Shown: piece after piece, positions 4,455-59,855 of the stretch
Numbering within the stretch: position 1 is the stretch's first letter
How the letters are laid out: every line of letters starts with the position of its first letter
Source: Parcubacteria group bacterium
GTDB lineage: Bacteria; Patescibacteriota; Minisyncoccia; SW-4-49-11
Direction: 5' to 3'
Assembly: GCA_943354045.1 (NCBI GenBank)
Contig: CALRBF010000001.1
Coordinates: 68,046-132,045 of the forward strand
DNA length: 64,000 nucleotides
The notes under the pieces: generated by a model
Seen by the model: only the letters and a program-made list of their open reading frames with translations
Databases searched by the model: none
What the model was told of the DNA's origin: nothing
Position numbers and translations under genes: made by a program

Positions 4455-5207
4455 TTATTGATTTACTTTGAATCTCACCTTACCAAATTCAGCTTTTGTA
4501 AAATTATCTTCAATAATCAATACATATTCTCCATTTTGAATATTGCGTCCATTAATATCTACAAAATTCCAATCAAATTTCCCTGTATTAATACGATTTT
4601 GAGCTAATACAAAACGCTCATTATCACTTTCAAGATATATATTTACAAAAAATATATCAGGAGTAAAGCTCCAAGAAATACTGTTATTCTCTTGATTGAA
4701 AATTTGTTTTTCCACTGGACTCGTAATAGTAAGATTTTGTTTTTCACGAATCAGAGCAAATATAGGAGATTGTCCTATATTTTGACTATTTTGTACTAAT
4801 ATAATTTGATATTGACCTGGCTCATAAGCTTTACTATTTATCTCAATAAAACCCCTATTAAACTTTTGCTGTCCTAAAGAATATTCTTTAAGCTGTGGCT
4901 TATCTGACAGAGAAGAATCAAGAGATACCAAAAAAACTTCAATTGGCTCTAAATAAACTTGACTTAATTCTAATTTGATTATATCCCCAATTTCAATATT
5001 CTGATATTGTCTAGGACTATTCACAGTTACTATTTTTTTAGGAGAAATAGTATTATTTTGATTAGATATGGGATTTTGTATATTTTCTTTATTAGTATAA
5101 ACAACAAAGATACGAGCTCCTATTATCAATACTAAAAATAAAACAATACCTATACTATAAAGTATATTATTTTTTATCCAATTTATAAATTGATTCCAAA
5201 ACATCAT
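4455..5207 (-). CDS. Hypothetical protein with an N-terminal transmembrane anchor
   Basis: 250-aa ORF with a single N-terminal hydrophobic helix. Its start overlaps the end of the upstream plsC-like gene. Confidence 0.35.
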   Translation of the reverse strand: MMFWNQFINWIKNNILYSIGIVLFLVLIIGARIFVVYTNKENIQNPISNQNNTISPKKIVTVNSPRQYQNIEIGDIIKLELSQVYLEPIEVFLVSLDSSLSDKPQLKEYSLGQQKFNRGFIEINSKAYEPGQYQIILVQNSQNIGQSPIFALIREKQNLTITSPVEKQIFNQENNSISWSFTPDIFFVNIYLESDNERFVLAQNRINTGKFDWNFVDINGRNIQNGEYVLIIEDNFTKAEFGKVRFKVNQ

Positions 5208-5787
5208 CTGCTACTTTTTGTATTTCATCTTCTGACTTTATTGTATCATATGATTTGATTTTGCCTATATGTAGTGTTAAATACCATATTGGAATATATT
5301 TCCAAGGCTTTCGATAATTAATATATACAGGTAATACTGGAGCTTGTGATTTCCAAATGAGATACCCTACACCCCTTTTTGCATCCCCTTTATGATCAGG
5401 GTGTTTTTGCATTTTTCCTTCTGGAAAAATGCCAACCATCTCACAATTCTTTAAGGCAGTAACCATGGGATCAAGAACTTGAATACCCATTCCACGATCA
5501 ACTGGGAAACATTTCATTTGACGTAAATACCATCCAACAATAGGTTGCTTAAAAAATCGTGCCCCTGTAACAAAGTAAATTGATATAACCTTAGTTCGAT
5601 TCATCAAAGCTAAATAATACCAAATCCAAATACCATCATATGGCCCTCGATGATTAGATGCAATAATTAATGGTCCCTTTATATTTTGCAAATTTTCCAC
5701 TCCACTAATATGGACTTGTTTGCAAAACAAACGCATAATTATATGAAAAAACCAGAAGGTAATCCAGTACAATACATTATGTACCAT
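5167..5787 (-). CDS. Lysophospholipid (1-acyl-sn-glycerol-3-phosphate) acyltransferase family protein
   Basis: It carries the H(X)4D acyltransferase motif (ASNHRGPYDG) and the FPEGK motif typical of PlsC-type acyltransferases. Confidence 0.6.
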   Translation of the reverse strand: MVHNVLYWITFWFFHIIMRLFCKQVHISGVENLQNIKGPLIIASNHRGPYDGIWIWYYLALMNRTKVISIYFVTGARFFKQPIVGWYLRQMKCFPVDRGMGIQVLDPMVTALKNCEMVGIFPEGKMQKHPDHKGDAKRGVGYLIWKSQAPVLPVYINYRKPWKYIPIWYLTLHIGKIKSYDTIKSEDEIQKVADDVLESIYKLDKK

Positions 5788-6685: not shown

Positions 6686-7423
6686 ATGATTAAATCTCTA
6701 TTCACAAAGAAAAATATTATCATATCTAGTATTGTTCTTGTATTAGGTTTGGGAATAGCCTATATCCTATTAAAGCCCGATTCTAAACCTAAGCTCACGC
6801 CTATAGATGAAGGGCTTGCTCCCATTAGAATTATTCAGATCAAGGACGGCAAAGAACAAGAAGTTAATTTTACTGAGTCAGGAGCTGAAATTATTGCAAG
6901 TGCCCTTTTTTCTGCCAATCCTTTTGATGAACAAATTAAACAAGATATACAAGATCTTGGTATTAATCGTATAGATTTCCCCCCCCTCCCAGAAAATCAA
7001 ATAAAAGTTATCCCCAATCCAGAAAATCCACAAGCAGCAATTGAAAAATATTTAAAAGAGGTATATACTATATTCAAGGATAATACTATCCAGCTCAATA
7101 TCAATCAGCTCTCTGAAGAGGCTTTGGATGGAAAAACACAAAATATTCAATCCCTACTTCGCATTAATACTGATTTATATCGTTCATTATTCACAATAGA
7201 AGTACCCCAAGATGCATTAAAGCTTCATAAAGGATATATTCGAATCACCCAAATACAAAATAACTTTTTATTGGGACTATTAAATGCAAGCTCTGATCCA
7301 TTAAGACTTGATATCAATAGTAAAATCAGTCTATCTTTACTCCAAAAGATTGATATACCAATAAAAGAGGAACTACAAAGTATCAGAAAAAAATACAATA
7401 TCATATACCAAAAACAATCATAA
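6686..7423 (+). CDS. Hypothetical protein with an N-terminal transmembrane anchor
   Basis: 245-aa ORF with an N-terminal transmembrane helix. It is the first gene of a plus-strand block that ends at 12505. Confidence 0.35.
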   Translation: MIKSLFTKKNIIISSIVLVLGLGIAYILLKPDSKPKLTPIDEGLAPIRIIQIKDGKEQEVNFTESGAEIIASALFSANPFDEQIKQDIQDLGINRIDFPPLPENQIKVIPNPENPQAAIEKYLKEVYTIFKDNTIQLNINQLSEEALDGKTQNIQSLLRINTDLYRSLFTIEVPQDALKLHKGYIRITQIQNNFLLGLLNASSDPLRLDINSKISLSLLQKIDIPIKEELQSIRKKYNIIYQKQS

Positions 7424-7424
7424 T

Positions 7425-9134
7425 ATGTCTTCTCTATTTTCTCAGAAAATAATAACAATAATCGGAATATTTTTATTCGGATTTCTATTTATAGCACCTC
7501 ATATTACCTATGCTGACAACTTGTATGGGCAATCTTGTGGTACAAAAAAATGTAGTGGAGCTGAAGTGTGTCAAAAGCAATATAGAGGGGTATTACCTAT
7601 TGGAGCACAAAATGATGGAAATGCTACCTATACCTGTGTTAAGCCACAGAATATAGCGGCTCCAGATAGTCCCTATAAGGGAGTTCAGGCATCTTGTAGT
7701 GATGTATTTCAAAAAGCATTTGGGCTTGATTTAAGCTCACTTACTGGTTCAGTATTAACAGATACTCTCCAGGTTGGATTGGGACAAATAAAAAATAGTT
7801 TAGGCCTAGATGGAGTCGCATTTGGATATGATTCAAGGGGTCCTCAAGCTTTAAACCTTAATAATGTAGGATTAAACTGGAGTATAGATCCTACTAATCT
7901 TATTAATACCGATGCATCATTTTTCAAAGACTTTGTCCCAAAATGTGATAGTGCTTATAATAATATAAAAGGTATAATTAATACTAATTTCCTCGTAGCT
8001 CCCCTTCCTGTTGATATTTTTAATCCCCTACCTCTTCCAGTTAATGTTACCTCTCCCACTCCACTTCCAGTAATAGTAGTGGATGATTTAGCTCTTTATC
8101 AGCAAAAAGAATTAATTGATGCCCCTCTAGCCGCTCAACAAAAAGCAAAGACAATAGCGACCGTAAGCGATACTCTGAGATATCAAATTAGTGTGGACAC
8201 TTTAATTGTCAATAATTATTTTGCTATTAATCAGTTAGGAATACAATTTGGAGCATTAGATCCTAATACTGGAGTAGTATCTAAAGAAGCTATAGATAAA
8301 TATGGATCTTATCAGAATTTCTCATTAGATAAAAATAAAGAAATAGAACAATATTTTAAAGGTTTACAAGATCAAAAAAGTCAATTACCTGAGGAGGATT
8401 TTACCCAAAGTTGTGGAAATGTAAAGACGGAAGATGCAGCGAAAGTGAGTTTTGAATGTGGTATTTTAGCGACAAAAACCATAAATAATCCCAATGGTAT
8501 TGCCTTTAATATAGCACAAGTAGCTGCAGAAAAATCACAAAATGCCACCGAACTCCTTGATCAAGAAGTTCGTGATGGAAGTGGATATTTTGCAAAGACA
8601 GCAGATGGAGATAAGAACCCATTCACCAAAACTATTCAGACCCCAGGATCAAACATAGAATCTCTTACCAATAAAGTATTAGAGTCTACTGTGGATCAAG
8701 CTATTACTGCATCTGGAGACAATTGTTTTGAGGCAATTCCTAATAATATCCTCGAGGGGTCACTCAAACCCGTACTGACTCAAGGATTATTTGGAGTTAA
8801 TAATACTCTAGCATCAGTACAAAAAAATGTAACCTCTAATCCTGTTAACTCATTACAGAATCCTAGTGGTTTTGCTAATCAATTAACTTCTGGATTACAA
8901 GGTGCTATACCTGACCCTAATAAATTCTTCAAGTCTCTACAAAATTCATTATTACAAAATGTAACCAATGGATTATCTTGTGAGCTTAATAAGCAAGTTT
9001 CAGGGCTACTCAATGGAGCTCTCGGGAATATTAATATCCCAGGTATTGGTAATGTAAGTGGGGCATTAACGAATCAAGCCACAGGGGCTATAAATGGAGC
9101 TCTCAATAATGCTGTTAATGGACTTATACCATAA
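7425..9134 (+). CDS. Secreted protein with a signal peptide; Cys-containing N-terminal domain and an S/T/N/G-rich low-complexity C-terminus
   Basis: Signal peptide IITIIGIFLFGFLFIAPHITYA. The mature protein has a Cys cluster (CGTKKCSGAEVCQK...YTC) and a long polar region. It lies immediately upstream of the TrbL/VirB6-like gene. Confidence 0.4.
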   Translation: MSSLFSQKIITIIGIFLFGFLFIAPHITYADNLYGQSCGTKKCSGAEVCQKQYRGVLPIGAQNDGNATYTCVKPQNIAAPDSPYKGVQASCSDVFQKAFGLDLSSLTGSVLTDTLQVGLGQIKNSLGLDGVAFGYDSRGPQALNLNNVGLNWSIDPTNLINTDASFFKDFVPKCDSAYNNIKGIINTNFLVAPLPVDIFNPLPLPVNVTSPTPLPVIVVDDLALYQQKELIDAPLAAQQKAKTIATVSDTLRYQISVDTLIVNNYFAINQLGIQFGALDPNTGVVSKEAIDKYGSYQNFSLDKNKEIEQYFKGLQDQKSQLPEEDFTQSCGNVKTEDAAKVSFECGILATKTINNPNGIAFNIAQVAAEKSQNATELLDQEVRDGSGYFAKTADGDKNPFTKTIQTPGSNIESLTNKVLESTVDQAITASGDNCFEAIPNNILEGSLKPVLTQGLFGVNNTLASVQKNVTSNPVNSLQNPSGFANQLTSGLQGAIPDPNKFFKSLQNSLLQNVTNGLSCELNKQVSGLLNGALGNINIPGIGNVSGALTNQATGAINGALNNAVNGLIP

Positions 9135-9135
9135 T

Positions 9136-11175
9136 ATGAAAATTAAAACAAAACATATACAATATATAGCTCCTATATGTATTATAACTATCTTATTTTT
9201 CCCCTCTATTACTCATGCACAGAATGTTGTAGACCTTTTTACAGACCCATTGGGGTTTTTTGGAGATGCATTAGGAGCTATTCTAAGTGGAGTTGTAAAA
9301 CCTCTGTTAGATAGCGTAATGTCTTTTCAGAACTTCTTTCCAGCAGGAGTAAACGCAGGTTGGACAGCTACCAGAGATTTTGCCAATTTATTCTTTGCGC
9401 TTATATTACTCTTTATTGCAATAGCAACCGTACTCAATACCGGAGGCTTAGATAATTATACTGCCAAGAGAATGTTACCAAAATTCATATTTGCGGCTTT
9501 ATTTATTAATTTTAGTAAGGCTATTGTGGGATTCCTCATTGATATTAGCCAAATTATTATGATATCCCTATATAATACTTTTGGCACCAATTTAGCAAAA
9601 GATATATTAGATGCATCAGATTATGCACAAACAGCCTCCGAAAGTGGTTTAGATAGCAATATTATTAAATTATTTACTATAATACTTTTAGTTGTCCTAA
9701 TATTTGTATTATTATGGACATCAGCTATTTTTGCTATACGCATAGTAACTCTTTGGTTTGTTATTATGTTGTCTCCCCTAGCCTTTGTATCTGGGCTCAT
9801 TCCCCCATTGAGTTCTCTATCAAAAAGTTGGCAAAATATGTTACAGCAAGCTCTTGTAACAGGTCCAGTATTAATGTTCCTCTTATACTTAGCTGTTACG
9901 GTAATGAATTCAGGCATAGGTCCTGATATTGGAGGGAATCTTTTAGAGAATGGAAACATAATAAAATTTGTATTGGTAATTGGACTATTATTCCTCGCTA
10001 ATATAGAAGCAATGAAAGCAGGACAATCCGCTCCCCCAATGATCAAAAATGCCGTTGGTGTAGCAGGAACTGTAGCTACTTTTGGACTAGGAGCTTATGT
10101 CGGAGCTGGAGGAGTTGGTACTGGAAAAATGTTTGGTAAGGGAGGAGAATTAGTGCAAGGTGGAGTTAAAAATACTGATAAGTTAGCTGGAGGTGCTACG
10201 AGAGGTGTACAGGTTTTGAGTGGAGGGAAATTTAACCCTAATGATAGATATGAGATGTGGAAAGAACAAAATAAGACGAATGTTGAGAAAGGAAAAGCAT
10301 TTGGTGGTGGCTATTTTGGAGCGTTAGCACAACAAACCCTTGGAGGTCAAGCTGGTCAAAAAGCAAATTATCAAAAAACTCAATTAAGGTTAGCTGAAGA
10401 AGCAAGAAAAGCAAATAAATTAGATGATAATCCTATATTAGCCAGGGCTTTAGCAAGTGCTGAATCAGAAATAATAGAAAAGAATAAGTTTGAAGAACGT
10501 CCAGATAAAATAATTGCAGATATTAAAGACGCTATTAAAAAAGCTGATTTAGTTACTGCTAGAGCACTTACAACTCATCTTAATTCTCTAGGGAAAATAA
10601 ATGAATTATTTAACGGAAATGGTCCTTTTAAGGATATTGCTGAAGATTATGCTACAGAGGCTGATCAATTTGCTGCATTTAATCAAAAACATCTTCAGGC
10701 AAATGATTCCCAATATGATAAATCTTTCTTACAAAGGAATAAAAATATTGCTAAAAACAAATCAGGTATGGAAGGGTTTGGAGTTAATGCCGCTACAACA
10801 ATTCCTAATATTAATAGTGTTGCAGGGCAACCAAATGTTCCCCAAAATTCTCCATTATTTCAAAAATACAAAAAAGGATCTTTATCAAGTAATGCAAAAA
10901 CTTTCTCTGATAATCTCTTTAGTACCCGTAAAATTGATCCGAATACCAATAAATTTGCTTTTGATGCAAGTGGTAATGCTACTTATGAATTTGACAGTCG
11001 GGCATTTGATGATTTTGTATCAAATAGGAGTATGAATGAATTAGAAAACCCTGATACCTGGAAATCTATGAATCAATCTTTAAAAACAACTATTATTGAT
11101 GGATTAAGACAATCTGGATTACAAAAAAATGACCCAGGGAATGCTGCTGCTGCTTGGAGGGGAATAGAACCTTAA
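9136..11175 (+). CDS. TrbL/VirB6-like polytopic membrane protein, a putative type IV secretion channel component
   Basis: There is a signal-like N-terminus (start chosen at the ATG at 9136, just after the upstream stop). About 6 transmembrane helices span roughly aa 90-300. The long C-terminal tail is Gly-rich (GLGAYVGAGGVGTGKMFGKGGELVQGG...), an architecture typical of the TrbL/VirB6 family. The family assignment is inference. Confidence 0.4.
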   Translation: MKIKTKHIQYIAPICIITILFFPSITHAQNVVDLFTDPLGFFGDALGAILSGVVKPLLDSVMSFQNFFPAGVNAGWTATRDFANLFFALILLFIAIATVLNTGGLDNYTAKRMLPKFIFAALFINFSKAIVGFLIDISQIIMISLYNTFGTNLAKDILDASDYAQTASESGLDSNIIKLFTIILLVVLIFVLLWTSAIFAIRIVTLWFVIMLSPLAFVSGLIPPLSSLSKSWQNMLQQALVTGPVLMFLLYLAVTVMNSGIGPDIGGNLLENGNIIKFVLVIGLLFLANIEAMKAGQSAPPMIKNAVGVAGTVATFGLGAYVGAGGVGTGKMFGKGGELVQGGVKNTDKLAGGATRGVQVLSGGKFNPNDRYEMWKEQNKTNVEKGKAFGGGYFGALAQQTLGGQAGQKANYQKTQLRLAEEARKANKLDDNPILARALASAESEIIEKNKFEERPDKIIADIKDAIKKADLVTARALTTHLNSLGKINELFNGNGPFKDIAEDYATEADQFAAFNQKHLQANDSQYDKSFLQRNKNIAKNKSGMEGFGVNAATTIPNINSVAGQPNVPQNSPLFQKYKKGSLSSNAKTFSDNLFSTRKIDPNTNKFAFDASGNATYEFDSRAFDDFVSNRSMNELENPDTWKSMNQSLKTTIIDGLRQSGLQKNDPGNAAAAWRGIEP

Positions 11176-11186
11176 GATAATTCACT

Positions 11187-12059
11187 ATGACACTCGCAGA
11201 TATCAAAAGTGAAGCTCAATCCCTTATCACCACAGATAATGTGCCGGGATCTCTTGAATTTGCGGAGAAATTAGAGAAATCTCTTAATGAGAATAATATC
11301 AAAGATTCGAATCCAGAGGCTTATCGAGAATTATCTAAGATTATATTCCAACTTTATGTTACTGCTATTCCCAATATATCAACCGAATTATTCCATAAAA
11401 TTATTTCCCTCAATATTATAGAGGCTTTGAATCCTCTATGGCCTTCTGAGCGTGATTTTGCCGCCCGAATTGAGAGTAGATATTCTATTTACCCTGTAGA
11501 ACTCATCAAAGAAGAAATGCGCAAGGATTTACTCCCTCTTATCAAACAAAATAATCAACTTATTGGCTCTGTAGTATTACGATTATCTCAAGAAAATCCT
11601 CAGGCCAAGCCAAGTATTAGTAATTGGATTGAGTATTATGATAGAACAACTGGTTTAGGGTCAGCTAACAGCTTTGAGCGTTCTCGTTTTATTAGTGGCG
11701 ACCCCATTGTACAAACCTTAAATCCTGAGGAAAAAGAGTCTCTGAGGAAAGTAGTTCAATTCTACGATTATCTTCAAACTGATGAGACAATCCTCTATCA
11801 GGATATTTATAATACTGCTCCTCAATCAACTCTCAATACAATAACTCCTAATATTGACCCTAAGCCAAAACAGACTACTCCCCTCCCCACACCTAAACCA
11901 ATTACTACGGTGAAAACTCCTGTCTCTACTCCCAATAATATTCCCCAAAATACAATTCCCCGAGCTCCAATACCTCGCCGTACTTCTGCTCCTGTAGTAT
12001 TGACAGCTAAGCCAACTCCTATTCCACAAAATCTTGTTAATCTCAAAAAACCAGAATAA
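11187..12059 (+). CDS. Hypothetical protein with a Pro/Thr-rich C-terminal tail
   Basis: 290-aa ORF whose C-terminus is PKPKQTTPLPTPKPITTVKTPVSTPNNIPQNTIPRAPIPRR. No catalytic motif is recognisable. Confidence 0.35.
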   Translation: MTLADIKSEAQSLITTDNVPGSLEFAEKLEKSLNENNIKDSNPEAYRELSKIIFQLYVTAIPNISTELFHKIISLNIIEALNPLWPSERDFAARIESRYSIYPVELIKEEMRKDLLPLIKQNNQLIGSVVLRLSQENPQAKPSISNWIEYYDRTTGLGSANSFERSRFISGDPIVQTLNPEEKESLRKVVQFYDYLQTDETILYQDIYNTAPQSTLNTITPNIDPKPKQTTPLPTPKPITTVKTPVSTPNNIPQNTIPRAPIPRRTSAPVVLTAKPTPIPQNLVNLKKPE

Positions 12060-12061
12060 CT

Positions 12062-12505
12062 ATGCAGCAATATAATATTCCACAATTTATTGACTCTGAA
12101 GATAAAATCATTGGTCCTCTGACCATAAGGCAATTTGCATTTTTGGCAATTGGTGTGGTAATTGGGGGATTTTTATGGTATTTTAAACCCAATTTGGGAG
12201 TTTTTGTGATTAGTATATTACCTGTTGCTATTGCAACTTTTGCTTTTGCTTTTATCAAGATAAATGGGCAGAATTTTGATATATTCCTGGTAAATGTTGT
12301 GGTTTATATCCTGAAGCCAACTTTATTCCTTTGGTCTCGAGATATAGATCCAACCCAATCAGTTATTAAAGTATCTATTGAAAAGCGTAAAGCTTCATTT
12401 AGGCGAGAGACTCATGATTATAATCAATCTCGTGTAGAAGAAGTAGCTTGGACTCTGGATAGTTATGGTGAGAAAACGGTAATTCCAGATATTGCGACAG
12501 AATAG
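12062..12505 (+). CDS. PrgI/VirB3-like small membrane protein (Gram-positive conjugation-type type IV secretion component)
   Basis: The N-terminus MQQYNIPQFIDSEDKIIGPLTIRQFAFLAIGVVIGGFLWYF matches the PrgI-family pattern, followed by two transmembrane helices. The assignment is inference from memory of the family. Confidence 0.4.
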   Translation: MQQYNIPQFIDSEDKIIGPLTIRQFAFLAIGVVIGGFLWYFKPNLGVFVISILPVAIATFAFAFIKINGQNFDIFLVNVVVYILKPTLFLWSRDIDPTQSVIKVSIEKRKASFRRETHDYNQSRVEEVAWTLDSYGEKTVIPDIATE

Positions 12506-23862: not shown

Positions 23863-25374
23863 TTATTCTTTTATACTATCTAGATGAGCTTGAGCTAATT
23901 GTGTATAATTATCTTTCTTCTCTGCTGTCATTTTGCTATATTGTACTCCAATAAATCCTAATCTGCCTTCTTTTTGTAATTGTTCAAAATGTATCCCTAC
24001 AAAATTCCAAAAAAGTGTATCAAAAGTATCGCACCATTCCCCCGCTTTGAAATCACTCATTTTCCGAATATAATTGGATGAGGCAATATAGGGTTTAGTG
24101 GTCAGTAATCCCCCATCGGCATATAAAGTCATACTATATACATTGGGTACCATCACCCAATCATAGGCATCAATATACATTTCCATAAACCATTCATAGA
24201 CTGCATTGGGTTCAATATGGCATAAATTCATATAATTCCCCAGAATCATAAGTCGCGGAATATGATGAGTATAGGCATATTTCCTTAGCACTTTTATATG
24301 ATAATCCACTGGTTCTATACCTGTTGTTGCGGTCCATAATGAGGCGGGCATAGATGTATGCGCTTCAAAATAATTACGATTTCGAATAGTACTTCCTTCC
24401 AATATATACAAAGCTCGGATATATTCTCTCCAACCAATAATTTGGCGGATAAAGCCTTCTGCTGATTCGAGGGGTATACTTTGTTGTTCCGCGAGAGCCA
24501 ATGTCTCTTGAAGTACAAAATCTGGAGTTAATAGTCCATTATTGAGAAGTGGTGATATAGTACTGTGAAAAACTGAAGCTGATTGTTGGGTAACAGCATC
24601 TTCATAAGGTCCAAAAAGAGTAAATCTCTGATTGAGAAAATCTCTCAGATGTTTTTTGGCTTGCTTATGATCAATAGGGCTCCAAAAAGCATCCGTATCA
24701 CCAAAATTATTGGGGAAATATTGCTCTATATATGCTCTTGCTTCCTCTACATATGAGGAATTATTGGGGGTAAATGTCTCTGGTATATCTATGTCTTTGG
24801 GGAGCTTTTTTCTATTTTCGGTATCAAAACTCCATCTCCCGCCTTGTGGTTTATTATCTTCAATCAGAATATTGAGCCGTTTTCTCTGCCATATATAGAA
24901 GTCATTCATATGGTATTTGCGGGCTCCTATGCGTGATTGGAAAAATTCCGTAAATTCTGATATAGAGGTGAGGAACATAGGACTTTCGTATACAGTATAT
25001 GCAATGACTGCCTTATCGAGAGCCTTGATAAGGCGACTACTCAGCCAATCATCAGTAACATCATAGAATTCTACGGTATCGATATGATTCTGTTGTAATA
25101 GAGATACAATACTGTCAGTGGTCTCAAGCTTATGATACTCGATATATTCAACAGCAATATTTTGAGTGATAAGATATTGCTGATAGCTTTTCATACTCGC
25201 TCGATGTAATATGAGCTTTTGTTTATGAAAAGCAAATTCACTAAAATAAAGTGGCTCTTCTATCAAATACACAATATCACTATCTTTTAGATATTGTATA
25301 TCTTCAAATAGTTGATGAGGGTATATGAGAAATGCTTTTTTCTTAACTTTCAATTCCTTTTGGATTAGGTCCAT
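23863..25374 (-). CDS. Cryptochrome/photolyase-related protein (COG3046-like, FeS-BCP/(6-4) photolyase-type)
   Basis: It is about 500 aa. The N-terminus FLIYPHQLFEDIQYLKDSDIVYLIEEPLYFSEFAFHKQKLILHRASMKSY is typical of the photolyase-related family. C-terminal motifs WVMVPNVYSM and YIASSNYIRKMSDF are present. The start was set at the internal MDLIQ (ATG at 25374) because the longer ORF overlaps the upstream gene by 90 nt. Confidence 0.6.
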   Translation of the reverse strand: MDLIQKELKVKKKAFLIYPHQLFEDIQYLKDSDIVYLIEEPLYFSEFAFHKQKLILHRASMKSYQQYLITQNIAVEYIEYHKLETTDSIVSLLQQNHIDTVEFYDVTDDWLSSRLIKALDKAVIAYTVYESPMFLTSISEFTEFFQSRIGARKYHMNDFYIWQRKRLNILIEDNKPQGGRWSFDTENRKKLPKDIDIPETFTPNNSSYVEEARAYIEQYFPNNFGDTDAFWSPIDHKQAKKHLRDFLNQRFTLFGPYEDAVTQQSASVFHSTISPLLNNGLLTPDFVLQETLALAEQQSIPLESAEGFIRQIIGWREYIRALYILEGSTIRNRNYFEAHTSMPASLWTATTGIEPVDYHIKVLRKYAYTHHIPRLMILGNYMNLCHIEPNAVYEWFMEMYIDAYDWVMVPNVYSMTLYADGGLLTTKPYIASSNYIRKMSDFKAGEWCDTFDTLFWNFVGIHFEQLQKEGRLGFIGVQYSKMTAEKKDNYTQLAQAHLDSIKE

Positions 25375-25861
25375 ATTTATTTGCTCCAGGAGTACTATCC
25401 GTAAACTGTAATATAAATAGCCATAAAGCTCCAATAATAGGAATAATACCTATAAGTAAAAACCATCCACTTTTCCCAACATCATGAAGTCTTCTTACCA
25501 ATACAGCGAATCCAGGGATAAATGATATTAATGTATATATCCCACCAAGACCTTCTCCAATATTTAATGATTTAGAGATAAAGCTTAATAGTATAAAAAC
25601 AATAACATTAAGTAAAGTAAAATACCAATATTCACTTCTCCTTGCACGTCCACTAAAGTCAGCATATTTACGAAAAGCTCCTATATAATAATCAATAGGT
25701 GATCTCTCAAGAATGGGCTCTGCTGTTGCTTCATTCGTCGTCGCTTTCTTCTCTTGATAAAACTCAGATATCTCTTGGATTTTATCTGCATTAGGTGTAG
25801 ATGCTACTGGGCTTTGTTCTACAGGTTGTTCAGGGTTTTGATTGGTATTTTGATCATCCAT
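25343..25861 (-). CDS. DUF805-family inner-membrane protein with an acidic N-terminal extension
   Basis: DUF805 signatures RRSEYWYF, VRRLHDVGKSGWF and NKYGPNP are present, with 3 transmembrane helices. Confidence 0.6.
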   Translation of the reverse strand: MDDQNTNQNPEQPVEQSPVASTPNADKIQEISEFYQEKKATTNEATAEPILERSPIDYYIGAFRKYADFSGRARRSEYWYFTLLNVIVFILLSFISKSLNIGEGLGGIYTLISFIPGFAVLVRRLHDVGKSGWFLLIGIIPIIGALWLFILQFTDSTPGANKYGPNPKGIES

Positions 25862-25873
25862 ATTTTTTATTAT

Positions 25874-26242
25874 TTAATTATAAAATGCTGGGGGAAATGA
25901 ACTTATTGTAAAAAACATAAAAATCCAAAAAGGAATAGTTAATATAAACCACACCAACCAATATATTAGCTGGGCTTTTGCCCAACTCTTCTTAGTTTTA
26001 TTAGATTCATCCCCAAATGCCCATATAAGTAAAAATATAAATCCTAAAATTGGAATAGATGAAATTAATATTATTACTAGCCATTGTTTTGTACTGATTA
26101 CAGAATTTGATTCAGTAGTATTATTTTTACTTTCATAGATTTCAGATATCTCTTGGATTTTATCTGTATTAGGTGTAGATTCTACTGAACTTTGTTCTAC
26201 AGGTTGTTCAGGACTTTGATTGGTATTTATTTCGTCAGACAT
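25874..26242 (-). CDS. Small membrane protein whose N-terminal 40 aa are a near-copy of the N-terminus of the adjacent DUF805 protein
   Basis: Its N-terminus MSDEINTNQSPEQPVEQSSVESTPNTDKIQEISEIYESK matches MDDQNTNQNPEQPVEQSPVASTPNADKIQEISEFYQEK in the neighbour. About 110 bp of DNA are roughly 90% identical (26120-26242 against 25740-25861). Confidence 0.4.
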   Translation of the reverse strand: MSDEINTNQSPEQPVEQSSVESTPNTDKIQEISEIYESKNNTTESNSVISTKQWLVIILISSIPILGFIFLLIWAFGDESNKTKKSWAKAQLIYWLVWFILTIPFWIFMFFTISSFPPAFYN

Positions 26243-56089: not shown

Positions 56090-56159
56090 AATAATATGAA
56101 TAGTAAGATAATCACTTTATATAATAGCATATTTCATCCTAAATGTCAAAAGTTTTCAA

Positions 56160-56201
56160 CAGGTGAAATAAAAGAAAAACTCACCCCAAGCTAGAGGTGA
56201 G
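56160..56201 (-). terminator. Intrinsic terminator at the left edge of the GC-rich island
   Basis: On the minus strand the sequence is CTCACC-tctagcttgg-GGTGAG followed by TTTTTCTTTTATTT. Confidence 0.5.
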
Positions 56202-56418
56202 TATATATGATTAAAGCAATATCTCCTACCAAAAATAGTCCTATCAATGCCCCCAAGAGTCTAACTAAGAAGCGGGCTTGTACTTCTTGATCAGCTCTAC
56301 TTAGTAGGATATTTTCATCAAGAGTATCATTCTTTATTTCCCGAGCTATTAACACAGCTACAAGGAAAAGAACGGGTTTGAGATTGCGTCGCATGAGTTC
56401 AAAGAGCGGGAATAACAT
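56191..56418 (-). CDS. Small membrane protein at the island edge
   Basis: 75-aa ORF with two hydrophobic segments. Its composition is intermediate between the island and the background. Confidence 0.3.
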   Translation of the reverse strand: MLFPLFELMRRNLKPVLFLVAVLIAREIKNDTLDENILLSRADQEVQARFLVRLLGALIGLFLVGDIALIIYTHL

Positions 56419-56548
56419 GTATTATACCCTATCTTCATGTAAAATGAAAATCCCCAGTTGCAAAGCAACCGGGGACATAGAGTAAAACCAGAAATGGTCA
56501 AGGCGACTGCTCCCCGTGAGGGGTTAGTTGCTATCATTTTAGGTTTTC

Positions 56549-57769
56549 TTAGAAACGGAGGCCAGCGCGAAGCGTGGCGGCAAGACCATCACCGGAGGTG
56601 CCCGAGTTGTACCCGAGAACACCTTCAGCATAGGCGTTCTTGCTGATGCCGACCTGGAGACCACCGCCCACTTGGACATTGTGGTAGCCATCGCCGACCT
56701 CTCCTCGGACCTCTCCGAAGGGACGCCACTGACCACTCTTGGTCAGATAATAACGGCCATAGCCATTGGCATAGGCTCCGGTATTGTTCACACCGACCTC
56801 AGCAAAAACTTCAGTCTGCTGAGTGCGAGACCAGAGACCAGTTTTAGCGTTGAACGCCAAGCCGGACTCGCCAGCCACCGTAGCAGCACCCTCACCCTCA
56901 ACAAAGACAGTAAATTGCTGATACTTGTTCTGAACGAGATCTCGCTCGAGTCGAGCCCTAACACCCAATTGGGTGATCGGCTTGGCCGGGTTTTTCCAGG
57001 TATAGACATAGGGATACTCCATACCCGGACGGCTCTTGCCCTCACCAGAATCGGTATGAGTCAACTGACGGCCGAAGCCGACAACAGACCACCGAGTACG
57101 GGCATCTTGGGAGCGTCCATGAATACCTGCCCAGAATTCCAGACGGGAATCCGTATAGGACCCCTTCCAGATTTCTTTCAGGTTATCACCTGTGAAGCTA
57201 CCCGACTGAGTGACATATTGCACACCACTCATGAAGCCCTTGGCGGTAACAAACTCAGCTTTCACATCGAAGGCCGTATCCCGCGGACGGGAACGGAATT
57301 CTGTATGAAGACGGAATGGGTTCCACTTCCCTTCTCCCTGTTGCGGAATGGAATCCCGAGGAGGGACCACAATTCCAGTATTGGGAGTGGTGGAAGCGGG
57401 AGCAACGGCAACTGGGGCAGCAACCTGAATTACCGGGATAACCGGCGGAGGGCCAGGCTGTTGCTGTGATGAAACACCATTACGCTCAGCTTCCAGACGC
57501 ATGCGAATAGCACGGATCTGAGCTGCTTCCTCTCGAGTCGAGAGACGCCGAACTGAAGCGGTGGCGAGAGTATTGGTGACGACCGTGGAGGTCGCCGATT
57601 GAGGAACTGTAGCGTTCAACTCCTCCGCCTTGACACCCATGGGGGCACCAAGGAGAGGAAGAGCAAAGGCCAACAGTCCCAAGATGGTACGCTTTTTCAC
57701 AGCGACCTCCTGGTAAAGAACCCCCTTACAGTAGCATAAAAACACCATTTTGTCAATAGTTAACAACAT
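56549..57769 (-). CDS. Putative outer-membrane beta-barrel protein with an N-terminal coiled-coil and Pro-rich linker (GC-rich island gene)
   Basis: The signal peptide is KKRTILGLLAFALPLLGAPMGVKA (the true start is probably downstream of the ORF-track ATG). A helical segment (EEAAQIRAIRMRLEAERN) and a PGPPPVIPVIQVAAPVAVAP linker follow. The C-terminal 280 aa show alternating-hydrophobic beta-strands and end in GLRF. A C-terminal Phe is the OMP beta-barrel signature. Confidence 0.5.
   Translation of the reverse strand: MLLTIDKMVFLCYCKGVLYQEVAVKKRTILGLLAFALPLLGAPMGVKAEELNATVPQSATSTVVTNTLATASVRRLSTREEAAQIRAIRMRLEAERNGVSSQQQPGPPPVIPVIQVAAPVAVAPASTTPNTGIVVPPRDSIPQQGEGKWNPFRLHTEFRSRPRDTAFDVKAEFVTAKGFMSGVQYVTQSGSFTGDNLKEIWKGSYTDSRLEFWAGIHGRSQDARTRWSVVGFGRQLTHTDSGEGKSRPGMEYPYVYTWKNPAKPITQLGVRARLERDLVQNKYQQFTVFVEGEGAATVAGESGLAFNAKTGLWSRTQQTEVFAEVGVNNTGAYANGYGRYYLTKSGQWRPFGEVRGEVGDGYHNVQVGGGLQVGISKNAYAEGVLGYNSGTSGDGLAATLRAGLRF
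57730..57760 (-). promoter_or_regulatory. Promoter-like conserved motif upstream of the OMP-like gene
   Basis: In the minus sense the sequence is TTGACAAAATGGTGTTTTTATGCTAC. A near-identical 26-mer lies upstream of the 58908..59717 gene, and a variant (TTGACAAAATTGATAAAATATGCTAG) lies upstream of 57842..58294. Confidence 0.45.
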
Positions 57770-57841
57770 CTCAAATAGTGTCGGAAGAGAATAAAAAAAG
57801 CCCCCACGAGATGTGGGGGTAATTGGTGTTCAGGACTGGCC

Positions 57842-58243
57842 TCAGGGGGCAATGACGGCGTAAGTGTCAGGACTGATCGGTACTGACGGACAGGAGCTTT
57901 GCTGGCACTTGCCGGCCATGATGGTTCCTGCCCAGCCCTGAGGGGGGGCGATACCAACACTGTACCAGGTTTTGCCGTCGGGGAAACGGAAGTTCCCAAA
58001 GGCTCCTGAAGGAGGGCTGGCAACCCGCCCATCGATGACGGTTGCCGTCATCCCCCAATGACGAGGACCAAAGAGAAGCAGGGTGCTCCCATTGGGTACT
58101 CCCGGGGGCACCGAAATGCTTGCCCCCACCTGCTGAGCCGTGCCGGAAGACCCGGAGGGCTGGCTCAGCGGCCTTGCCATGACGGAGGCCATGGGAAGGA
58201 GGATGATGCCGGCCAGGAGGGCCTTGAAAAGAGCTTTCATGGA
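57842..58243 (-). CDS. Secreted protein that is a paralog of the N-terminal domain of the 58908..59717 product
   Basis: The signal peptide is MKALFKALLAGIILLPMASVMA (start set at the internal ATG at 58243). Motifs PGVPNGSTLLLFG, FGNFRFPDGKTWY, PQGWAGTIMAGKC and DTYAVIAP are shared with the larger paralog. Confidence 0.45.
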   Translation of the reverse strand, partial: SMKALFKALLAGIILLPMASVMARPLSQPSGSSGTAQQVGASISVPPGVPNGSTLLLFGPRHWGMTATVIDGRVASPPSGAFGNFRFPDGKTWYSVGIAPPQGWAGTIMAGKCQQSSCPSVPISPDTYAVIAP

Positions 58244-58299
58244 TTTACCACGAAACGACTTAGGGACTCTAGCATATTTTATCAATTTTGTCAAGAGTA

Positions 58300-58345
58300 A
58301 ACAGCATAAAAAAATACCGGCAGCTATTGCTACCGGCTTGAGAAT
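58300..58345 (-). terminator. Intrinsic terminator downstream of the N/Q-rich protein gene
   Basis: In the minus sense the sequence is GCCGGTAGC-aata-GCTGCCGGT (9 bp including 2 G-U pairs) followed by ATTTTTTT. Confidence 0.45.
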
Positions 58346-58363
58346 ATAGTTTTTACCTAGTTC

Positions 58364-58819
58364 CTAGTTACACAATATCCTTACATGATTATTTTGATAT
58401 ACACATCCTCTATTATTCCAAGAAGGAGTATGTTGCAAGTGATAATTATTATTCCAACCTGGATTTTGCTGGTGCAAGGGATAGTTCTGTCTACCCCATC
58501 TTGAACGTGGACGACCCACATAATGAGTAGTATATCCAGTGGAGTTACGTTGCTCATAAAAATACTCACAGGGAAGTCTTGTAGCCTTACGGACCCAATC
58601 ACATGTATCCATATTGGGAATGAGATTATTAGTCAAAATCTGACCCTCATAGTCAACTGTATCCCCACCGCCCTGATTTTGCCAGTAATTATTTTGCTGA
58701 TAGTATCCTCCTCCAAATTGATGTTGAGCCTGAACAGTGGTCGGAATACTCAAAAACAAAGCTGTTGCCAAAGAAGAAATGAGCCTTTGCATGAGAGGTA
58801 AACCTCTAATGTTTGCCAC
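58364..58819 (-). CDS. Small secreted N/Q/Y/W/G-rich protein with 4 Cys
   Basis: The signal peptide is LISSLATALFLSIPTTVQA. The mature part is low-complexity (QHQFGGGYYQQNNYWQNQGGG...WNNNYHLQHTPSWNNRGC). The DNA is noticeably less GC-rich than the flanking island genes. Confidence 0.4.
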   Translation of the reverse strand: MANIRGLPLMQRLISSLATALFLSIPTTVQAQHQFGGGYYQQNNYWQNQGGGDTVDYEGQILTNNLIPNMDTCDWVRKATRLPCEYFYEQRNSTGYTTHYVGRPRSRWGRQNYPLHQQNPGWNNNYHLQHTPSWNNRGCVYQNNHVRILCN

Positions 58820-58907
58820 TTCACCATAACATATATTATTATAAATATCAAGTCAAAAGGAAAAACCGCCAGCACTAGGTGCTGGCGGCGAGTTTTTGGA
58901 ATGGGGG

Positions 58908-59717
58908 TCACTGCGCCTGATAGGCATAGGGTCCGACCGGAGCCGGAGCATTGCCATCAAGCTTGATGACAGAGCCACGAAGCCTTGCGGCTCCGACGGT
59001 GCTCCAAGCTTGGAGTTGACCTCCATTCGCCCGATAGGCAAATTGGAAGACCTGTCCCCGTTGGACTGGGAGGCACCAGGTATTACCACTCACCTTGGTG
59101 AGTGCAACGACTTGTGCCGATCCCCTGCCATTATCTACCACCCCGACGGGAGTGGTGGATGAGAGAAGCCTTCTTACATTGACGAGCCCCTTGGGACCGC
59201 CCGTGAGGAGGCCAACTCCTGGGCGACTGGACCCGGCCCCGGAGAAGGAGATGGAGTTCAACCTCGAGGGAAGTTGAAGGCAGGCTTGCCCGCCTTGCAC
59301 CAACACCGTAAAAGAGCTATTGACTCCATTTGTAGTAATCGGGGCTACCAGGGCGAAAGTATCTCGGTCAAGAAAGGCCTCCACGCCATCACAGGCGAGA
59401 GCGTCCCCTTTGCAATCACCTGCAATGATACGAGCTGCCCAACCCTTGGGAACTCCAGAGAGCTTTTCCACCTGAAACCAGCTTGTGTCTGGTAGAATAA
59501 AGTTACCAAATATCGAGGCGGCCCCGACATCACCAGGAATGGTTACTTTTCCACTCCGAACGGGGTAGACTTTCTCCCATCCTTGTCCAAAAAGGACAAG
59601 ACGGGAACCGTCAGGGACTCCCGAAGGTGCCGGGAGGGTATAAGACTTCCCTTGTGCCACCGCAGGAATGGCGGTGAAGATGAGGGCAAGCGCCCCCACA
59701 AATCTGAAAATGTTCAT
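58908..59717 (-). CDS. Secreted two-domain protein; its N-terminal domain is paralogous to the 57842..58243 product
   Basis: The signal peptide is MNIFRFVGALALIFTAIPAVAQG. Motifs PSGVPDGSRLVLFG, FGNFILPDTSWF, PKGWAARIIAGDC and DRDTFALVAP are shared with the smaller paralog. Confidence 0.45.
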   Translation of the reverse strand: MNIFRFVGALALIFTAIPAVAQGKSYTLPAPSGVPDGSRLVLFGQGWEKVYPVRSGKVTIPGDVGAASIFGNFILPDTSWFQVEKLSGVPKGWAARIIAGDCKGDALACDGVEAFLDRDTFALVAPITTNGVNSSFTVLVQGGQACLQLPSRLNSISFSGAGSSRPGVGLLTGGPKGLVNVRRLLSSTTPVGVVDNGRGSAQVVALTKVSGNTWCLPVQRGQVFQFAYRANGGQLQAWSTVGAARLRGSVIKLDGNAPAPVGPYAYQAQ

Positions 59718-59760
59718 TTCAATCTCTCATCGCTGAGGGGTGAAGGTTCAATGTGATGGT

Positions 59761-59790
59761 AGCATAAAACAGCCATTTTGTCAAAAATAT
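59761..59790 (-). promoter_or_regulatory. Second copy of the island promoter-like motif
   Basis: In the minus sense the sequence is TTGACAAAATGGCTGTTTTATGCTAC, located about 45 nt upstream of the ATG of the 58908..59717 gene. Confidence 0.45.
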
Positions 59791-59855
59791 ACACCAATAT
59801 AATTACTCTATAACCCTATCGTCAATATCCTAAAAATAAGCTATACTATACCTAT

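Follow-up and report, generated by a model that had tools for sequence, protein, structure and literature searches.

A predicted outer-membrane-type beta-barrel on a flexible stalk, encoded in a recombining cassette locus of freshwater Paceibacteria

Introduction

OmpG of E. coli is a monomeric 14-stranded porin that resides in a BAM-equipped diderm, and FadL and TodX are 14-stranded channels for hydrophobic substrates. The OmpM/SlpA tethers are composed of an SLH domain, a coiled coil, and a porin barrel, and FapF, which belongs to the amyloid secretion system of Pseudomonas, has a coiled coil, a linker, a plug helix, and a 12-strand barrel. Neisserial porins and Opa proteins, the mosaic antigens of diderm pathogens, are intragenic recombination mosaics whose allele phylogeny is decoupled from that of the genome. 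Tethers of the OmpM/SlpA type occur in Terrabacteria, the superclade that includes the CPR (10.1101/2021.05.31.446380).

CPR (Patescibacteria) have been described as monoderm (PMC12857230, PMC12102498, 10.1101/2021.05.31.446380, PMC12329446), lack an outer membrane (PMC12102498, PMC12857230), and are placed within a clade that lost it (10.1101/2021.05.31.446380, PMC12329446). They are treated as monoderm descendants of a diderm ancestor, and an outer-membrane-protein (OMP)-type barrel in such a genome touches on how CPR breach or tap their hosts. For one patescibacterial parasite, Mycosynbacter, infection depends on the outer (mycolic acid) layer of the host (PMC11880426). A barrel in a monoderm has precedents, since some monoderm Actinomycetia and Firmicutes are reported to have predicted barrels (PMC10629564).

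Here, we describe a barrel gene and its surroundings in a 64-kb stretch of CPR DNA (the whole analysed stretch is hereafter the window). We are highly confident in the descriptive account: a Sec-exported OMP-type barrel that is under selection, sits on a flexible stalk, and comes from an accessory cassette locus, subject to recombination, in a CPR clade.

Results

The barrel gene and the architecture of its product

The barrel gene (gene D) occupies positions 56549 to 57700 on the minus strand and encodes 383 aa plus a stop. As first called, the ORF runs from 56549 to 57769 (minus strand), and the gene's promoter falls within the first 23 codons of this call. Because promoter and RBS both fall inside the 5' end of the called ORF, we place the true start at the GTG at 57698-57700, which gives the 383-aa protein. 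The expression signals (57706-57756, minus strand; within the 38-nt repeat family D1) were read from the sequence and comprise a -35 box TTGACA (57751-57756), a 17-nt spacer, an extended -10 box TGC-TACTGT (-10 at 57728-57733), and an RBS graded as strong (AGGAGG, 57706-57711), with the GTG start 5 nt further on. Downstream of the gene is a terminator hairpin with a T-run (56450-56476, minus strand), the 12-pair stem of which has 7 GC pairs.

The protein begins with a predicted Sec-type signal peptide (residues 1-25, MKKRTILGLLAFALPLLGAPMGVKA, followed by EE; 57626-57700, minus strand), in which n-, h-, and c-regions and a VKA cleavage motif are recognizable. A Ser/Thr-rich stretch leads to a short amphipathic helix (residues 55-74, TREEAAQIRAIRMRLEAERN; 57479-57538, minus strand), followed by a Pro/Val/Ala-rich stalk that is predicted to be disordered (residues 75-128; 57317-57478, minus strand; pLDDT <50) and a barrel domain of 255 residues that ends in GLRF (residues 129-383; 56552-57316, minus strand). 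All elements listed in the sequence-only reading are therefore present, namely the signal peptide, the amphipathic helix, the Pro/Val-rich linker, and a strand-rich C-terminus ending in Leu-Arg-Phe. The signal peptide is kept among homologues and matches at 100% identity in allele P0040, which is otherwise divergent and has a barrel only ~40% identical. Gene D is under purifying selection, with a dN/dS of 0.27-0.30 in the barrel. Database homologues of 227-242 aa are gene-caller truncations of an intact ORF, and we rejected them as a separate short form of the barrel.

A predicted 14-stranded barrel with outer-membrane-protein hallmarks

AlphaFold modeling from the single sequence was unusable (pLDDT 33), and the informative run used an alignment of 34 sequences (A1). 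It predicted residues 129-383 (pLDDT ~90) as 14 long antiparallel strands connected by very short turns, and residues 1-128 as disordered except for the helix at residues 55-74, the sole structured element N-terminal to the barrel. A structure prediction had been proposed as the check on the barrel, with a non-barrel fold as the outcome that would speak against it; the fold obtained was a barrel. Foldseek against the PDB was concordant with the model, and a search of BFVD retrieved generic barrels only. The protein lies nearest to OmpG and FadL in fold. FapF was not a preferred fold match and has no sequence similarity to the barrel.

In 12 of 15 strand elements, mean hydropathy clearly separates the two faces, one side being rich in L/V/A/F/I and the other polar or charged; this polarity is sequence hydropathy per strand element, as distinct from a belt analysis on model coordinates. 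Of the 34 family sequences in alignment A1, 32 end in Phi-[R/K]-F. The gene D product thus combines a predicted Sec signal peptide, a closed, even-stranded antiparallel barrel, hydrophobic and polar strand faces, and an aromatic C-terminal beta-signal, which are four intrinsic hallmarks of the OMP class.

Sequence variation peaks N-terminal to the barrel, in the S/T-rich, helix, and stalk segments (entropy 1.4-1.6), and is lower in the barrel (0.74). Within the barrel, a test for hypervariability on the loop side showed no significant bias towards one end (entropy 0.79 versus 0.70, p = 0.38). Searches with the barrel protein against Pfam, NCBIfam, PDB sequences and profiles, PHROGs, and PADLOC all returned no match. 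By these searches, the family is new in sequence. Its fold is known, and it is restricted to one clade and found in an unexpected cellular context.

A GC-rich island of secreted proteins

Gene D is part of a GC-rich cassette island (56440-59790), which interrupts a surface-glycan locus (Wzz/Wzy/DUF4012) between two of its GT4 glycosyltransferase genes. The GC-rich sequence forms two blocks (about 56440-58300 and 58850-59790), one on each side of the native gene B. The other genes of the island, all on the minus strand, encode secreted proteins of 269 aa (gene A, 58908-59717; GC3 0.54; promoter 59756-59784, terminator 58865-58889), 142 aa (gene B, 58364-58792; Q/N/G/Y-rich with four Cys; host-like GC3 of 0.33; terminator 58316-58337), and 132 aa (gene C, 57842-58240; GC3 0.68; promoter 58266-58294, terminator 57801-57819). 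All four proteins, the barrel protein included, have predicted signal peptides, and neither a lipobox nor an LPXTG sortase signal was read from any of their sequences.

Genes A to D are separate transcription units, each equipped with a promoter and ending in a hairpin terminator. A 38-nt promoter motif (TTGACAAAAT...ATGCTA, comprising the -35 box, a 17-nt spacer, and the extended -10 box) occurs in four copies in the window, three upstream of island genes (57731-57768, 58269-58306, and 59759-59796) and one upstream of the native downstream GT4 gene (56124-56161). The motif is common to island genes and native GT4, which indicates that the cassettes are wired into host expression signals. Between gene D and this GT4 gene lies a gene for a 75-aa membrane protein with two predicted helices (56191-56418, minus strand), with its own promoter and terminator. 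The protein (C-terminal GDIALIIYTHL) is conserved directly downstream of the barrel gene in the related loci L008, L009, and L022; whether it is part of the island module is uncertain.

The N-terminal half of the gene A protein and the gene C protein are paralogues (37% identity, E 4e-15), and both have a conserved Cys-x(2-6)-Cys loop and an FGNF motif. Neither protein has a family or structural match by sequence. Gene A has 29 homologue clusters (60-100% identity), all hypothetical proteins, and the one entry with a named source is from Candidatus Parcubacteria.

Gene B is a native resident of the slot and is kept where the barrel is absent (L027 and L028). Copies are found in the window and at 2237-2716 in L026, 2744-3022 in L027, and about 1660-2052 in L028. 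They are Q/N/G/Y/W-rich and low in GC, and share the conserved motif DTCDWVR..C as well as GC.Y.D.N.R(I/V)LCN at the C-terminus. In L009, the gene B position is taken by a 129-aa protein with 'NQGWRN' repeats. A Q/N-rich protein beside a barrel could recall a Fap- or curli-like amyloid secretion module, which we rejected because gene B is native and present without the barrel.

The composition of the island breaks sharply with its surroundings. GC3 is 0.54 in gene A, 0.68 in gene C, and 0.54 in gene D, compared with 0.15-0.33 in the other 58 ORFs of the window, and GC outside the island is 28-39%. High expression was rejected as a general explanation, as the major pilin has a GC3 of only 0.18. 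In the slots of L001, L007, L008, L009, L026, and L027, cassette genes hold a GC3 of about 0.5-0.7 where other genes have ~0.2, and this spans lineages with no more than 60-80% identity between their housekeeping proteins. Such a composition could come from GC-biased conversion at a recombination hot spot, but this is only a guess.

A clade-restricted family in a constant slot

A word-seeded search of 5.8 billion proteins yielded 43 homologue clusters of the barrel, and an exhaustive profile search of 1.84 billion representative proteins yielded five barrel clusters, all from this clade. The latter search found no homologue outside the clade and hence no donor. Of these five, every cluster with visible context occupies the same slot, except for one singleton on contigs of 1.6-1.8 kb. 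The slot has constant neighbours, with Wzz/Wzy/GT4 on one side and GT4/DUF4012/RecG/TrmD on the other, and the same island was found in it on 18-24 contigs (from many lake metagenomes and several assemblers) as well as in related species. Among the carriers of the island are the NCBI genome with P0047 on a 425-kb contig, CALMJI01, JBIKVS01, and the 290-kb JGI contig Ga0492759_0000001.

Lineages that share the barrel family at this slot have diverged to only 56% identity in the neighbouring GT4 protein and 44% in the DUF4012 protein. One of these relatives, L021, has a genome of ~43% GC and a GT4 that is 56% identical, and carries the barrel in the same slot with a host-like GC3 of 0.36. The lack of an outside homologue in the 1.84 billion proteins, the same slot in distant lineages, and the host-like GC3 in L021 together indicate that the family is old in the clade and not recent foreign cargo. 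No barrel was found in IMG/VR viral contigs, phage or plasmid collections, PHROGs, or PADLOC, and a phage, plasmid, or defence origin was rejected on these grounds. The island borders have neither an integrase nor a tRNA.

A single out-group relative of the barrel was detectable, P0046 (L010-L012), a 301-aa protein that lacks a stalk, ends in FIFRF, and has an AT-rich-type amino acid composition. It is found on contigs of 1.6-1.8 kb with about 20-39% GC, one of which shares its sample with L033, a relative with 27% GC and an empty slot. A search seeded from P0046 as the most distant relative returned nothing new.

Allele exchange and variable slot content

The history of the island alleles is decoupled from that of the genome, as judged from paired comparisons of island and flanks. 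In L008, the flanking proteins are 92-98% identical to those of the window (flank dS 0.1-0.4), whereas the island proteins are 45-79% identical (barrel 64%, with a dS of about 1). The reverse holds for L001, in which the flanking proteins are 60-81% identical (flank dS 1.2-3.0), whereas identity is 93% for gene A (dS 0.38) and 75% for the barrel (dS 0.66). The barrel is also internally mosaic: the closest homologue switches five or six times along the protein, each with 90-100% local identity, and the overall identities are 39-77%. These patterns indicate that alleles are swapped between lineages and recombine inside the gene.

The content of the slot is also variable. L026 and L009 have other GC-rich secreted genes and a divergent type of barrel, L028 has gene B alone, and in L032 and L033 the slot is empty. 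L027 has no barrel but a 277-aa protein with a similar signal peptide and helix, a long Ala/Pro repeat stalk, and a different C-terminal domain. In this protein (4665-5498; 265 aa from the likely start), a signal peptide and the helix STRQDVEEIQGMIR precede APVSAPAPE-type repeats spanning about 110 aa, and the C-terminal domain, of about 90 aa with two Cys, is unrelated to the barrel. The similarity between its N-terminal module and that of the barrel protein is weak (E 6e-4), and the module looks like a reusable stalk. As the barrel is missing from some relatives, it is accessory. The locus is a hypervariable cassette site, a long-lived compositional island maintained by allele exchange in a reduced genome.

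Host lineage and envelope type

The host belongs to a freshwater Paceibacteria (CPR) clade. Of the two genome matches, one is an uncultured MAG and the other a MAG of 'Candidatus Paceibacteria' recovered from Lake Mendota, and a gene A homologue is named 'Candidatus Parcubacteria'. The window encodes peptidoglycan synthesis proteins (MurC, MurG, UppS, and YceG) and a type IV pilus set (PilM, PilB, PilT, PilC, PilD, and pilins), and has no secretin gene anywhere in its 64 kb. It also carries a PrgI-family gene adjoining large membrane proteins, an arrangement typical of monoderm T4SS. The region at 6686-12505 has large membrane or secreted ORFs of 245, 569, 693, and 290 aa without a Pfam match, followed by the PrgI-family gene, and a near-identical contig has a 672-aa call equivalent to the 693-aa ORF with a weak match to TrbL_3 (VirB6-like). 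The region is probably a patescibacterial T4SS of the monoderm type. Elsewhere in the window, two adjacent ORFs (25343-25861 and 25874-26242) have nearly the same acidic, Pro-rich start (NTNQxPEQPVEQS...), and the first carries DUF805.

Outer-membrane biogenesis genes (Omp, Bam, Lpt) are absent from about 84 kb, comprising the 64-kb window and about 20 kb of flank, and from the literature on CPR we infer that BamA is absent from the genome. An OMP-type barrel in a setting that otherwise looks monoderm, as claimed from the sequence alone, is thus supported on both counts: structure prediction, fold search, and sequence pattern support the barrel, and CPR taxonomy, PrgI, the type IV pilus genes without a secretin, and the lack of Omp, Bam, and Lpt genes are in keeping with a monoderm.

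Discussion

Our favoured reading, held tentatively, is that gene D encodes a stalk-mounted barrel for host interaction that inserts into the outer membrane of a diderm host. Cultured CPR cells live attached to hosts. Because CPR cells are described as one-membraned and host-attached, and the stalk module is also found on a non-barrel head (L027), we read the N-terminal part as a stalk, which would hold a variable head away from the cell. In the gene D allele, the head would be a barrel that enters a second bilayer, for which the most plausible candidate is a diderm host's or prey cell's outer membrane. Once inserted, the barrel may serve as a pore, an anchor, or both, and the stalk would link it back to the CPR cell; the fast turnover of alleles would reflect an arms race or host-range specificity. 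The host outer membrane is favoured as the putative target because a barrel belted with hydrophobic residues must sit in a bilayer, an open barrel is unlikely to reside in the cell's own energised membrane, and no second membrane is apparent. Life on a host, and the dependence of one cultured CPR on the host's outer lipid layer (PMC11880426), point the same way. A fuller version seems doubtful to us, in which the tethered monomeric barrel of a CPR epibiont enters the diderm host's outer membrane from outside, possibly by mimicking the host beta-signal, and serves as a feeding pore and anchor, with the GC-rich cassettes setting host range.

Several observations weigh against insertion into a host outer membrane. 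BAM acts from the periplasmic side, and entry from outside would need a spontaneous or other route; the variability of the barrel is not concentrated at one end, as is usual for exposed loops (p = 0.38); the likeness of the stalk module to the L027 protein is weak (E 6e-4); and predicted barrels are known in some monoderm phyla (PMC10629564). The barrel might instead stay on the CPR cell, in the wall, the S-layer, or the outer face of the single membrane, as an adhesin, uptake channel, or phage receptor with phage-driven turnover. Phage receptors and surface antigens typically show mosaic, frequency-dependent-looking variation of this kind, the island lies within a surface-glycan locus, and the stalk architecture fits surface display. 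We nevertheless consider this unlikely: 14 strands with a hydrophobic outer belt require a bilayer, an open barrel would be harmful in the sole energised membrane, and we know of no wall-embedded transmembrane-type barrel in monoderms. It is distinctly improbable that the clade has an outer lipid layer or relict outer membrane in which the barrel would be a porin or tether, held by stalk and helix like OmpM/OmpA. The order of helix, Pro-rich linker, and barrel does resemble outer-membrane tethers, the C-terminal Phi-[R/K]-F is like the BAM beta-signal, and the family is old within the clade. Yet the window has the monoderm-type T4SS gene PrgI and a pilus set without a secretin gene, about 84 kb contain no outer-membrane biogenesis gene, the close relatives L028 and L027 lack the barrel, and in published work the clade that includes CPR is one that lost its outer membrane (10.1101/2021.05.31.446380, PMC12329446).

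Release of the barrel as a free pore-forming toxin against competitors or hosts, with the N-terminal region as a pro-region or chaperone segment rather than a tether, would fit a Sec-exported protein without LPXTG or lipobox in its sequence and an accessory, hypervariable gene like those of toxin cassettes. We give this little credence, as there is no evident immunity-gene-like partner and no match to toxin or defence families, and known beta-pore-forming toxins are soluble, oligomerising monomers, not pre-formed 14-strand monomeric barrels. The composition of the island, with a GC3 of 0.54-0.68 against 0.15-0.33 elsewhere in the window, invites the idea of recent, neutral or decaying cargo from a GC-rich diderm. 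Foreign cargo was among the explanations offered by the sequence-only reading, and its compositional half stands; the donor half fails, with no homologue beyond the clade in 1.84 billion representative proteins or in phage, plasmid, and viral collections, a family long in the slot, and the same slot occupied in the 43% GC relative L021 by a barrel with a host-like GC3 of 0.36. Nor is the cargo non-functional, as had also been suggested, given intact ORFs, purifying selection, and native-type promoters, RBS, and terminators. A recent import is thus very improbable and largely refuted. The sharp composition break could likewise mark an assembly chimera or the contaminant fragment raised at the outset, which is refuted because 18-24 contigs of independent origin (sample and assembler) share the junctions and the syntenic slot, as do related species.

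The barrel could accordingly mean a tool aimed at the outer membrane of a host, as we favour, a barrel that is independent of BAM, or a hint of an outer lipid layer in some CPR. Each of these meanings would be informative on envelope evolution and on the mechanism of epibiosis, and the barrel locus offers a compact, one-gene system for testing them.

Comparison with known systems

OmpG is among the closest folds to the barrel, at a sequence identity of 7-11% and with no Pfam or PDB sequence match. It has neither the N-terminal helix nor the Pro-rich stalk of the gene D protein, and its diderm host provides BAM. FadL/TodX channels are also among the closest folds (9% identity), but gene D has no match to Toluene_X in Pfam or NCBIfam and no hatch domain, and its residues 1-128 are modelled as disordered outside the barrel. 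A classical autotransporter beta-domain was rejected, as the barrel has 14 and not 12 strands, the helix is separated from it by ~55 disordered residues, and there is no Pfam match.

In architecture, the gene D protein recalls FapF, with the difference that it has 14 strands and no plug; the two share no sequence similarity, and the logic of a Fap-like operon does not apply, gene B being independent of the barrel. The OmpM/SlpA tethers resemble it in domain order, in that an anchoring element at the N-terminus is joined through an extended spacer to a barrel at the C-terminus, although gene D has no SLH match and a helix of only 20 residues instead of a long coiled coil. In its evolution, the barrel is reminiscent of neisserial porins and Opa. 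The families are unrelated, the variation of the barrel shows no concentration in loops, and cassettes are exchanged or missing in their entirety, yet like these antigens it is an intragenic recombination mosaic with an allele phylogeny decoupled from the genome. The basic residue that precedes its terminal Phe is likewise one that we take to resemble the neisserial type of beta-signal.
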